Made by a program: the position numbers and the translations under genes. A model generated the notes under the pieces. That model made no database searches, had not been told where the DNA came from, and worked only from the letters and a program-made list of their open reading frames with translations. This document shows, piece by piece, positions 25,709 to 29,984 of a stretch of 33,238 nt of DNA (position 1 is its first letter; each line of letters starts with the position of its first letter). The stretch covers positions 1-33,238 of the forward strand of contig JANWXW010000113.1 in assembly GCA_025057315.1 (NCBI GenBank), given 5' to 3'. Source of the stretch: Myxococcota bacterium (GTDB lineage: Bacteria > Myxococcota_A > Polyangia > Palsa-1104 > JAEUJZ01).

Positions 25709-25838
25709 ACTCCCGTGCGGCGCCCTGGTGCAGCCGGTCAGTTGCGCCGGTACATCGTGACCACGCAGGTGCGGACCCCGTGCGGCGCCCTGGTGCAGCC
25801 AATCAGTCGCGCCGGTACATCGTGACCACGCAGGCCCC
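25709..25838. repeat. ~65-bp tandem duplication covering the last ~30 nt of the thiolase gene plus ~33 nt of downstream sequence
   Basis: CCCGTGCGGCGCCCTGGTGCAGCC occurs at 25712-25735 and 25777-25800. (G/A)TCAGT(T/C)GCGCCGGTACATCGTGACCACGCAGG occurs at 25736-25769 and 25801-25834. The distal copy encodes …VVTMYRRN* versus the genuine …VVTMYRRD*. Confidence 0.85.
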
Positions 25839-27002: not shown

Positions 27003-29984
27003 TTAGCCGAGGTTTTTGAGGAATCCCAGCCGGTGCGCCAGCAGGACATCACCGTCGACGCGCAGGCGACCACGCTGGAACAGGTCACGCGCAACCTGGG
27101 GGTCCCGCACAAGCTGCGCCAGGTCCGCATCGGCCAGGGTGAAGACCGCTGCAGCCTGCGGGTCTCGCCCGGGTCGGACGCCGACCGAACCAGGCCGCAG
27201 GTCCACGAGGTAGCTGGCCTCTGGGCTCTGGATGTGGAACTGCAACAACGCCCCGACCTCGGCGGCAAGCTGCGGGTTGCTGGCCAGCCGCTCGGAGAGC
27301 GCGCGAAAGATCGCCGGGGCGCACCCCTGGGCTGGCTGTCCCGCGGGCGGCGCCTGGACCGAGCCCTGCGCCGCTCCGCTTCCCTGCTCCGCCTGCAGCG
27401 CCCGGGCTGCGGCCTCGCGATCGATGTGCTTGAGGAAGTCCAGCTTCTGCGCGGCCAGCAGGTTGCCCGTGATCTTGAGCCGGCCGGAAAAGTACAGCTT
27501 CTGCGGGTCGGCCTGCCCGGTGGCCATGGCGATGAAGTCCGCCTCGCTCAGCGTGAGCGTCACATCGGGCGCCTCGGCCGTGCCCGGGGCGCAGCGGCCG
27601 GTTCCGTGCTTCACATCGAGTACCCAGGCGCTGTCTGGCTCGGTCAGCTTCCACTGGAACACGGTCTGGATGCGGGCCGGCAGCTCGGGGTGAGCCTGAA
27701 GGTAGTGGGCGATGGCCCGGAAGATCGCCTCGCTGCGCAGCCCGGATGCCGGGGGTGAGGCTGTCGCAGGCCCTGTGCCGCGCCGAGCCTGGATGACGCG
27801 CAGAGCTGCCTGGGGGTCGATCTTTTTGAGGAACTCCAGCTTCTGCGCAGCCAGCAGGTTGCCGGTGATTTTCAGCTTGCCGCCAAAGTAGAGCTTCTGC
27901 GGGTCGGCCTGTCCGGTGGTCATGGCGATGAAGTCCGCCTCGCTCAGCGTGAGCGTCACGTCCGGGGCGGCGGCCGCGCCCGGCGTGACCGAGCCGCTGC
28001 CGTTTTTCAGATCCAGGGTCCAGGTGCTGTCCGGATCCTTGATTTGCCACTGGAATACCGCCTGCACCTTGCTCACCAGATCGGGGTTGCGCTGCAAGTG
28101 ATCGGCGATGACGGCGAAGACGTCAGCGCTCTGCAGCTCGGTGGGAGCAGACGGGGCCGGCCCTGGGGCCTCCTCCTTGGGCGGCTCGCGGTGCAGCTCC
28201 ACCACGGCATTGCTCAGCACGACCCGGTCGCGCTCTTTGACCTTGCAGCGCAACAGGATGCGCCCTGGCTCCTCCTGCCACATCTCGGTAACGAGCGTCT
28301 CGCCCGGGAATACGCTGTCGGCAAACCGGACCCTGATGCTTCTGAGCAGACGCGGGTCGCCGCCGGCGAAGCTGCGCAGCACGTGCCGGGTGACAAAGCC
28401 AAAGGTGCACAGCCCGTGTAGGATGGGCCGCTCGAAGCCGAAGCCGCGGGCAAAGGCAGGGTCGGCGTGTAGCGGGTTCCAGTCGCCCGAGAGGCGGTAG
28501 AGCAGCGCCTGGTCGGGCCGCGTCTTCTCCTCGACGATGGCATCGGGCGGCCGGGAGGGCAGGGGAACCTCCACCGACGGACCTCGCTCTCCACCCCAGC
28601 CGCCGGCCCCGCGCACAACGGTGGTCACTTCATTGTAGCAGAGCTCGCGGCCGCTCTCGTCGGTGGTGGTGATGGCCGTGACCACCAGGGCGTTTTTGCC
28701 CTTGTCGAAGATGTCCTTGATCTTCATGCGGTGCACGAGCTTTGCCTGCGTCGGCAGCGGTCGCCGGATCTCGGTGTACTGTTCACCGTGGAGCACGCGG
28801 TCTAGCCCATAGTGCAGGCCGGGCGCCTGCTTGCCCTGCTGCGCGGCGCGCACCAGAGCACCCACGGCCTGCGCAGCCATGAAGCTGGGCAGGGGATAGA
28901 AGCCGCTGGCGTTTAGCTCATACACCAGACGCAGGTCCTTCTCGTCGAGCGGATCGGCACCGGCACCGACCCCAAGAGCGTACAGCGCCAGGTCGCGTTC
29001 GGTGTAGCTGGACTCCAGCGGGGGGAACTCGTAGCCGAGCGCCTCGTCGACGTCAATGAACTCGTTGCCCACCTTGCCGCGGGCAGAGGCGAGGTTGTCG
29101 AGCACCGGCTGCATCGAGGCCGTGATGTCCGACGGGTGGGTGGTGCGATCAAAGCTGGTGATGACGGCGAAGCGATCGCGCACCCCCTCGGGCGTAATGG
29201 GACGGGACAGCTTGAAGGTGTAGCCTGCCGTGCGCTCCCAGCGCAGCTTGCTGAAGAAGCCACCGCCGACTTCGAACAGACCGCCCGTTTCGGTGCACGA
29301 CTCGTGGCACAGCCAGACCACCAGGGGCGAGACATACTCTGGCTTCAGGGCCTCGACGAGGTCTTTGGGTAGGACCGTTTCGGTCAGGCGCGAACCGGCA
29401 ATGGGCGCGATGGTATTGACCAGGATGCCACGCTTGCGGCCCTCTATGGCCAGGGTATTGGCCAGGCCGACGAGGCCCATCTTGGCGGCGCTGTAGTTGG
29501 CCTGGCCGAAGTTACCATACAGGCCCGCTGCCGAGGTGGTAAAGAGGATGCGACCATAGCCTGCCTCGCGCATCGGGTTCCAGGCAGCGGCCGTGACGCG
29601 GTAGGAGCCGAGCAGGTGCACGCGGTAGATGAGATCCCAGTCCTGCTCGGTCATCTTCTGGAAAGAGGTGTCGCGCAGGATGCCGGCATTGTTGATGACG
29701 ATGTCGATGCGGCCAAAGTGGTCCAGCGCGCACTGGACAATCTTGGCCCCATCCTCGACGGAGTCATAGTTGGGCACGGCCTCACCACCCAAGGCCTTGA
29801 TCTCGGCGACGACGCGGTCGGCGGCTGCAGTGGACTGGCCCTCGCCATGGCGAGAGCCACCCAAGTCGTTGACCACCACGCGGGCGCCGCGGGCACCCAG
29901 CAGCAGCGCGTGGGCGCGGCCTAGGCCGCCGCCCGCCCCGGTGACGATGGCGACGCGTCCGTCGAAACGAAGTTCGTTGGCCAT
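27003..29984 (-). CDS. peroxisomal-type multifunctional enzyme 2 (MFE-2/HSD17B4-like): SDR (3R)-hydroxyacyl-CoA dehydrogenase + hydratase-2 (MaoC hot-dog) + three tandem SCP2 sterol-carrier domains
   Basis: Start at ATG 29984 (AAGGAAGGA Shine-Dalgarno). N-terminus [43 protein letters not shown] matches human MFE-2 ([29 protein letters not shown]…VVVNDLGG). Hydratase-2 motif [17 protein letters not shown]. SCP2 domains 1 and 2 are near-identical (…[15 protein letters not shown](T/A)[11 protein letters not shown](G/S)G(K/R)[13 protein letters not shown](E/D)FLK…); a third, diverged SCP2 lies at the C-terminus. The ORF track's 30140 start adds 52 unsupported residues. Confidence 0.9.
   Translation of the reverse strand: [993 protein letters not shown]
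27380..28120. repeat. intragenic ~400-bp tandem duplication (two SCP2-domain-encoding segments, ~90% nt identity) within the MFE-2 gene
   Basis: e.g. 27420-27570 vs 27820-27970 share long identical runs (gaagtccgcctcgctcagcgtgagcgtcac…). Produces near-identical shadow ORFs on the + strand. Confidence 0.8.

Follow-up and report, generated by a model that had tools for sequence, protein, structure and literature searches.

A myxobacterial gene pair encoding an MFE-2-like protein with three SCP2 domains and an SCP2-type thiolase, a candidate module for (R)-specific beta-oxidation

The gene pair and its expression signals

The window analyzed here, which is the whole 33,238-nucleotide stretch of contig JANWXW010000113.1 of a Myxococcota bacterium, carries two adjacent minus-strand genes whose products belong to the families of two animal peroxisomal proteins, MFE-2 (HSD17B4, D-bifunctional protein) and SCPx. 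The first gene encodes a 993-residue MFE-2-like protein in which a short-chain dehydrogenase/reductase (SDR) domain and a hydratase-2 domain are followed by three SCP2 domains, while the second encodes a 392-residue thiolase. The two open reading frames (ORFs) occupy exactly the interval, 25803 to 29984, in which an initial annotation of the sequence had placed such a pair. The genes and the domains of the larger protein are as follows.

27003 to 29984, minus strand, stop codon included: gene for the 993-residue MFE-2-like protein, with SDR, hydratase-2 and three SCP2 domains (ORF, Pfam, solved-structure matches, NCBI gene call)
29085 to 29984, minus strand: putative (3R)-hydroxyacyl-CoA dehydrogenase-type SDR domain, approximately residues 1–300 (motifs, structure matches)
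28185 to 29054, minus strand: hydratase-2 double hot-dog domain, approximately residues 311–600 (Pfam PF22622 and PF01575, motifs)
27822 to 28130, minus strand: SCP2 domain 1, internal type a, approximately residues 619–721 (Pfam SCP2, 88 bits)
27426 to 27734, minus strand: SCP2 domain 2, internal type a, approximately residues 751–853, a duplicate of domain 1 (Pfam SCP2, 84 bits)
27006 to 27320, minus strand: SCP2 domain 3, terminal type b, approximately residues 889–993 (Pfam SCP2, 45 bits)
25803 to 26981, minus strand, stop codon included: gene for the 392-residue SCP2-type (SCPx-type) thiolase without an SCP2 domain (Pfam, NCBIfam, structure match)

NCBI gene calls on the source contig, in the deposit JAVQWY010000014.1 (102,856 bp; assembly GCA_033578775.1, labeled as a "Myxococcales bacterium" metagenome-assembled genome, MAG), give identical 993- and 392-residue products, and an NCBI MAG protein (P0001) is 100% identical to the 993-residue protein. 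The MFE-2-like gene starts at ATG 29984, preceded by AAGGAAGGA, and the thiolase gene at ATG 26981, preceded by AAGAGGTG. Each gene has its own ribosome-binding site, and a single promoter-like site is found for both.

30059 to 30088, minus strand: sigma-70-like promoter match, TTGACG-18-CATACT, upstream of the MFE-2-like gene (consensus match only)

This was the sole sigma-70-like match between 25200 and 30300, compared with a mean of 0.2 in shuffled sequence. No intrinsic terminator was found downstream of the thiolase gene, and no Rfam family matched between 25100 and 30300. Since only 21 nt separate the stop codon of the first gene from the start of the second, and two ribosome-binding sites accompany one promoter-like site, the two genes are very likely co-transcribed as an operon, which agrees with their initial description as adjacent members of one. 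The G+C content of the window is approximately 67%, and that of third codon positions is 0.83 in the MFE-2-like gene and 0.89 in the thiolase gene, values that resemble those of the neighboring genes and match the host genome.

Enzymatic domains of the MFE-2-like protein

Pfam resolves the N-terminal 600 residues into adh_short (residues 10–194, E 4e-37), MFE-2_hydrat-2_N (residues 326–459, E 4e-34) and MaoC_dehydratas (residues 476–573, E 3e-28). The SDR domain contains the motifs TGAGGGLG (15–22), NNAG (98–101) and YSAAK (164–168), and residues S151, Y164 and K168 do not vary among 34 homologs. In the same homologs, the HGEQ motif at 399–402 and the hydratase-2 signature at 496–512, defined by the pattern [YF]-x(1,2)-[LVIG]-[STGC]-G-D-x-N-P-[LIV]-H-x(5)-[AS], are likewise invariant. 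The hydratase-2 signature is thus present, as first annotated. The N-terminal dinucleotide-binding region had been called the exact one of MFE-2; compared with the Drosophila enzyme it is near-identical, not exact.

The top solved structure for the 993-residue protein is Drosophila MFE-2 (3oml, E 6e-159, residues 4–599), followed by the rat (1gz6) and human (1zbq) dehydrogenase domains and by human hydratase-2 (1s9c, E 3e-70). The SDR domain scores 421 bits against the rat MFE-2 dehydrogenase 1gz6, compared with 182 bits against the mycobacterial SDR 3qlj. Identity is 48% (276/576) to Drosophila MFE-2 and 55% to a cichlid fish MFE-2. Furthermore, both Pfam and an AlphaFold2 model place dehydrogenase, hydratase and C-terminal SCP2 in this order on a single polypeptide, as in animal MFE-2. 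On the strength of these characterized eukaryotic homologs, the protein is assigned putative (3R)-specific dehydrogenase and hydratase-2 activities. A peroxisomal targeting signal of type 1 (PTS1, of the form -[SA]-K-L) was sought at the C-terminus and not found, as expected for a bacterium; the protein ends in ...GFLKNLG, while the eukaryotic MFE-2 representatives end in -AKL, -SKL and similar sequences.

The SCP2-type thiolase

The 392-residue protein matches Thiolase_N, Thiolase_C and Thiolase_C_1 in Pfam, with no SCP2 match, so the initial statement that it lacks its own SCP2 domain stands. It matches NCBIfam NF006102 ("lipid-transfer protein") over its full length with 686 bits, compared with a cut-off of 436. 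Its top solved structure is zebrafish SCP2-thiolase type-1 (6hsj, E 4.5e-153), to which it is 60% identical (232/387); the second best, far behind, is the benzoylsuccinyl-CoA thiolase BbsB (7pxp, E 4.5e-62). SCP2-thiolases are recognized by a nucleophilic Cys in CxS/T, HDCF in place of NEAF, a GHP motif and the lack of the CxGGGxG Cys (PMC7682436). The window thiolase has C82 in CATG, HDCF at 291–294 and GHP at 340–342, with neither NEAF nor CxGGGxG. All 120 thiolase homologs listed are 387–396 residues long and have no SCP2 Pfam match. The catalytic motifs of both proteins of the pair are all intact.

A FadB/FadA-type identity of the pair is rejected by the Pfam, NCBIfam and structure results. 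FadA-type thiolases score at most 30 bits, and neither protein has an ECH or 3HCDH Pfam match. The initial annotation had assigned the pair to the MFE-2 and SCPx families, and named two findings that would speak against this, best matches to FadA/FadB-type enzymes and the lack of any SCP2 model match; both were looked for, and neither was observed.

The SCP2 array

Searched with Pfam SCP2 (PF02036), the full 993-residue protein gives three stretches (E 2e-60), and each domain scanned alone passes the gathering score of 21.3 bits with the scores listed above. The three SCP2 domains first read from the sequence are therefore borne out. The best solved structure for domain 1 is the SCP2-like domain of human MFE-2 (1ikt, E 7e-23), and that for domain 3 is rabbit SCP2 (1c44, E 2e-8). 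Domains 1 and 2 are 67% identical at the amino-acid level, and their DNA forms a 300-nt repeat with a 396-nt period that is 74% identical, while domain 3 shares 33–36% identity with either. Pfam Alkyl_sulf_C also matches the SCP2 repeats.

The AlphaFold2 model was built with 34 sequences and has a mean predicted local distance difference test (pLDDT) of 80.5 and a predicted template modeling score of 0.42. It shows five confident domains joined like beads on a string by linkers (606–615, 737–748 and 867–886) with pLDDT below 50. SCP2 domain 1 reaches a pLDDT of approximately 85–89, and all three SCP2 domains have a common order of helices and strands.

A tree of 106 SCP2 domains from related loci, together with the human MFE-2 SCP2-like domain and rabbit SCP2, separates two types. 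The type b clade consists only of last-position domains and includes domain 3, whereas the type a clade comprises all internal domains as well as the human and rabbit domains. Domains 1 and 2 of the window protein are sisters, and the internal copies of one protein are usually each other's closest relatives. From these clades and the sister relationship of internal copies, the basic bacterial layout is SDR, hydratase, SCP2a and SCP2b, with two anciently distinct SCP2 types. SCP2a has been duplicated repeatedly and independently, or homogenized by gene conversion, and the triple array of the window protein is one such case. Copy number varies among relatives: Archangium, Solimonas and Sandaracinaceae have two SCP2 domains, many Polyangiaceae have three, like the window protein, and Luteimonas has four.

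An alternative assignment, in which the terminal domain would correspond to the SCP2 of SCPx and the internal domains to that of MFE-2, was hinted at by phmmer and is unsupported, as the tree groups both eukaryotic domains with the internal type.

In two other loci, L006 and L034, from Polyangiaceae and delta-proteobacterial MAGs, the internal pair of SCP2 domains within a protein is separated by branches of near-zero length. This points to a very recent duplication, to gene conversion or to collapse during assembly.

Distribution and gene context

The 993-residue protein has more than 100 clusters of homologs of approximately 1000 residues, with 52–68% identity to it, including those of Minicystis rosea, Polyangium spumosum, Chondromyces apiculatus, C. 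crocatus and Sandaracinaceae. Some of these are already named "peroxisomal multifunctional enzyme type 2" by NCBI, and JGI gives homologs a KEGG-based (HSD17B4) name, 3a,7a,12a-trihydroxy-5b-cholest-24-enoyl-CoA hydratase. Thiolase homologs with 77–85% identity are named "lipid-transfer protein," "propanoyl-CoA C-acyltransferase" or "sterol carrier protein 2." The surprise of the initial annotation at eukaryotic-type enzymes in a bacterium is softened by the size of this bacterial family, which is already annotated automatically and forms its own clade; the rarity had been overstated.

Scanning a single genome from each GTDB species yielded 53 loci. Their hosts are Polyangiaceae, Kofleriaceae, Sandaracinaceae, Archangium, Vitiosangium, two gammaproteobacterial genera (Luteimonas and Solimonas) and Syntrophomonadaceae. 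Forty loci, from Polyangiaceae, Kofleriaceae, Sandaracinaceae, Archangium, Luteimonas and Solimonas, were informative, having a fused MFE-2 with SCP2 domains and enough downstream contig. In 38 of them an SCPx-type thiolase gene follows on the same strand at a distance of no more than 500 nt, most often after a gap of 25–54 nt, and its product is 61–78% identical to the window thiolase. Of the remaining two loci, one has the thiolase 5.4 kb away and one lacks it. The informative loci span at least two phyla, and Minicystis rosea has the same adjacent MFE-2/thiolase pair.

When all ORFs of 43 related loci were clustered, no conserved neighbor emerged other than the pair itself and shadow ORFs on the opposite strand. 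Lipid-related neighbors, namely an acyl-CoA synthetase and a fatty-acid desaturase, are sporadic in small subclades, as are a TetR regulator and a phosphopantetheinyl transferase.

Comparison with known systems

Animal MFE-2 and the window protein share the same three domain families, domain order and catalytic motifs, and the internal SCP2 domains of the window protein best match the human MFE-2 SCP2-like domain. The animal enzyme differs in having one SCP2 domain, compared with three of two types here, and in carrying a PTS1 where the window protein ends in -KNLG. The window protein, known here from its sequence, is bacterial, presumably cytosolic, and encoded beside a thiolase gene in the predicted operon.

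The thiolase shares the Cys nucleophile, HDCF loop and GHP motif of SCPx/SCP2-thiolase type-1 (EC 2.3.1.176, propanoyl-CoA C-acyltransferase). The fused C-terminal SCP2 domain of SCPx is missing from it; in this pair it is the MFE-2-like protein that bears the SCP2 domains. Bacterial type-1 SCP2-thiolases have been mentioned before (PMC7682436) and are poorly characterized (PMC3406046).

Several other systems share parts of the pair. The BbsAB/BbsCD proteins of benzylsuccinate beta-oxidation include BbsB, which matches the window thiolase, and BbsD, which matches the window SDR. The steroid side-chain degradation enzymes of actinobacteria and proteobacteria (Hsd4A, ChsH/Hsd4B, FadA5 and Ltp2/Sal) act on steroid-CoA thioesters and comprise homologous proteins of the SDR, MaoC-type hydratase and thiolase-fold families. 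These are separate polypeptides without SCP2, encoded in steroid-catabolic clusters, whereas the window pair lies outside any such cluster. UbiJ/UbiT and the alkylsulfatase C-terminal domain are SCP2-fold domains that present hydrophobic substrates to soluble enzymes; their likeness to the SCP2 array is a functional analogy, and the partner enzymes differ.

Like the Bbs proteins, the sets of SDR, hydratase and thiolase/DUF35-like proteins found in anaerobes are unfused and lack SCP2. Six loci from MAGs of Syntrophomonadaceae and other Firmicutes (L042, L043, L046, L047, L050 and L051) encode an MFE-2-type SDR and a hydratase-2 as separate adjacent genes without SCP2, and these proteins share 45–55% identity with the corresponding domains of the window protein. 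In five loci (all except L047), an HMG-CoA-synthase-like gene with a DUF35-like C-terminal part, assigned by eye, comes next, and the downstream thiolase is only approximately 29% identical to that of the window. This split set may be an anaerobic counterpart of the pair. A further arrangement is seen in a 709-residue protein of a Desulfobulbaceae cluster (P0271), a sulfate-reducer lineage, which has the permuted order hydratase-2, SDR and one SCP2.

Proposed function

The pair probably serves the (R)-specific beta-oxidation of acyl-CoAs that are very hydrophobic or branched. For reaction chemistry and stereochemistry this proposal follows the characterized eukaryotic homologs, while the substrate class and the role of SCP2 in substrate hand-off are suggested by analogy. 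As a soluble bacterial counterpart of the D-specific, peroxisome-type beta-oxidation cycle, the two-gene operon would carry out its steps 2–4. The hydratase-2 domain would convert trans-2-enoyl-CoA to (3R)-hydroxyacyl-CoA, which the SDR domain would oxidize with NAD+ to 3-oxoacyl-CoA. The thiolase would then cleave this product with CoA, releasing acetyl-CoA, or propionyl-CoA if the substrate is 2-methyl-branched. Mammalian SCP2-thiolase takes both 2-methyl-branched and steroid-bearing 3-oxoacyl-CoAs (PMC3406046). The supply of enoyl-CoA would require an acyl-CoA dehydrogenase or oxidase encoded elsewhere.

The SCP2 domains, on their flexible linkers, most likely bind the hydrophobic tails of poorly soluble acyl-CoAs, whether long, branched or bulky, and would keep such substrates close to the active sites of both enzymes. 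The absence of an SCP2 domain from the thiolase could be explained by this arrangement, as the domains of its partner would hold the substrate near both enzymes.

Several points weigh against the proposed degradative function. The pair has no linked gene for an acyl-CoA dehydrogenase, oxidase or racemase, either in the window or across the 43 loci, which leaves a beta-oxidation pathway incomplete at the locus. Literature searches turned up no enzymology, expression or genetics for any bacterial member. In addition, the sequence does not tell whether flux is degradative or biosynthetic, and the part given to SCP2 in hand-off is only an analogy.

The initial annotation had proposed metabolism of sterol or bile-acid-type side chains. 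In this reading the pair would shorten the side chain of endogenous cholesterol-type sterols, in a step like the C27 to C24 step of bile-acid synthesis, or that of prey sterols. The closest characterized homologs do carry out side-chain shortening in animal bile-acid synthesis (PMC3406046). Minicystis rosea, which makes cholesterol, has the pair, and so do Sandaracinaceae MAGs, with Sandaracinus also making cholesterol (bioRxiv 10.1101/2024.11.01.621555). The KEGG-based JGI name of the homologs is that of a bile-acid-pathway hydratase. However, homology does not single out sterols, because animal MFE-2 and SCPx also process ordinary very-long-chain and methyl-branched fatty acids. Every plausible ORF of the window was annotated, and neither a sterol-synthesis gene nor a steroid-ring-degradation or other steroid-catabolic gene (kst, ksh, hsa, chs, fadD/fadE types) was found in the window or in the approximately 6.7 kb past its right end; no such gene recurs in the 43 loci. 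The pair also occurs in Luteimonas, Solimonas and Kofleriaceae MAGs, taxa not known for sterol production. The sole cultured Kofleriaceae isolate makes no complex sterols, and Osc has only a sparse distribution in Polyangiaceae (bioRxiv 10.1101/2024.11.01.621555), a family in which the pair is common. Sterol side-chain shortening as the role of the pair is unsupported by anything found here and is unlikely; the sterol side chain is one possible substrate of the proposed beta-oxidation, and not the favored one.

Operation in the biosynthetic direction, by reverse beta-oxidation or as a supply of (R)-3-hydroxyacyl-CoA for products such as polyhydroxyalkanoate (PHA), unusual lipids or secondary metabolites, is quite unlikely. 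Thiolases are reversible, and the hydratase-2 domain is of the MaoC/PhaJ type. Acetoacetyl-CoA reductase models give the SDR good scores, yet these fall far under the cut-offs of the models. Although a 4'-phosphopantetheinyl transferase and a fatty-acid desaturase neighbor the pair in a few loci, no PHA synthase or biosynthetic cluster is conserved beside it across the 43 loci, and the characterized close homologs are all catabolic.

If the proposed (R)-specific beta-oxidation is correct, many soil myxobacteria and some Gammaproteobacteria would run an uncharacterized D-specific module of the peroxisomal type. Such a module would be a natural experiment on the role of SCP2 in MFE-2 and SCPx, a matter of continuing debate for the animal enzymes. 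In the bacteria, SCP2 is found on one partner only, in two ancient types and in two to four copies arising by repeated duplication. A link to myxobacterial cholesterol would be notable, and is so far a guess from homology.

Relation to the eukaryotic enzymes

Residues 1–600 of the MFE-2-like protein were searched against representatives of 50%-identity clusters. At this level the myxobacterial and gammaproteobacterial group collapses to one cluster (P0090), and the next-best clusters are eukaryotic MFE-2s from Coemansia (a fungus), a cichlid fish, Littorina (a mollusk), Salpingoeca (a choanoflagellate) and Spodoptera (a moth). Bacterial fused forms without SCP2 are also among the cluster matches, as is the permuted Desulfobulbaceae form described above. 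A neighbor-joining (NJ) tree (557 columns, 100 bootstraps) gives 82% support to the bacterial clade holding the window protein and places this clade outside the animal and fungal groups; backbone supports are 5–57%.

A recent horizontal acquisition from a eukaryote, either prey or host, with no settled bacterial function is highly improbable and already largely refuted: the fungal, fish, mollusk and choanoflagellate MFE-2s among the next-nearest clusters and a major vault protein homolog 7 kb away would fit it, but the protein belongs to its own bacterial clade in the NJ tree and not to the animal or fungal groups, its identity to animal enzymes is only 48–60%, the pair occurs with varied flanks in Polyangia, Myxococcia and Gammaproteobacteria, the codon composition is native, and the catalytic residues are invariant. 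The genes are instead long-established residents of bacteria.

Two MFE-2 proteins outside the bacterial clade also carry several SCP2 domains. One is a 1049-residue gene model from Rhipicephalus sanguineus (P0290), which has approximately four SCP2 domains and ends in -SKL, and the other is an 867-residue protein with two (P0255). Because of these proteins, SCP2 arrays may not be confined to bacteria, unless the two are gene-model artefacts.

An earlier study, made when few genomes were available, assigned Fox2 an alpha-proteobacterial origin and left that of SCP2 unresolved (Gabaldón et al., 2006; PMC1472686). The proposal of a myxococcal origin of mitochondrial beta-oxidation makes no mention of HSD17B4 or SCP2 (Schlüter et al., 2011). 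Literature searches found no paper on the architecture described here or on the myxobacterial pair, and neither the conserved operon nor the two-type SCP2 layout nor the recurrent SCP2 duplication appears to have been described. A bacterial clade with the full animal-type domain order is relevant to any re-analysis of the origin of the peroxisomal enzymes.

Two linked possibilities, together rather improbable, are that the pair shortens sterol side chains in myxobacteria that make cholesterol, such as Minicystis and Sandaracinus, and that the myxobacterial operon represents the source lineage of the peroxisomal pair. If the first were true, there would be a bacterial pathway of the bile-acid or steroid-acid type homologous to the animal one. 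If the second were true, peroxisomal beta-oxidation would join the genes for sterols and for mitochondrial beta-oxidation, through which a connection between Myxococcota and early eukaryotes has already been proposed.

Other features of the window

The 3' end of the thiolase gene is duplicated in tandem.

25712 to 25834, minus strand: two 58-nt copies of the thiolase 3' end, with a 65-nt period and 95% identity (DNA repeat search)

The copies lie at 25712–25769 and 25777–25834, and the duplicated unit consists of the last nine thiolase codons, the stop codon and 26 nt downstream. The duplication is located in a 615-nt intergenic stretch of 72% G+C that has no called gene or Rfam match, and may be an assembly artefact or the scar of a duplication.

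The only other lipid- or steroid-flavored match in the window is at 12705–14992 on the minus strand, where an acyltransferase gene (PF01553) adjoins a gene for an NAD-dependent epimerase/dehydratase with a weak 3Beta_HSD match (E 6e-8). These genes are 11 kb from the pair and are not conserved with it.

A second eukaryote-like protein on the contig, a 947-residue homolog of the eukaryotic major vault protein, is encoded at 16254–19097 on the minus strand next to an OmpA-family gene. It matches the Pfam families MVP_shoulder (E 1.7e-17), Vault_3 and Vault_4, and phmmer aligns its residues 356–890 with the rat and human major vault protein structures (E 5e-28).

At the left end of the window, between 352 and 5013, a Lon protease gene on the minus strand is followed by parA and parB genes on the plus strand; this stretch may be a chromosome-partitioning region near the origin.

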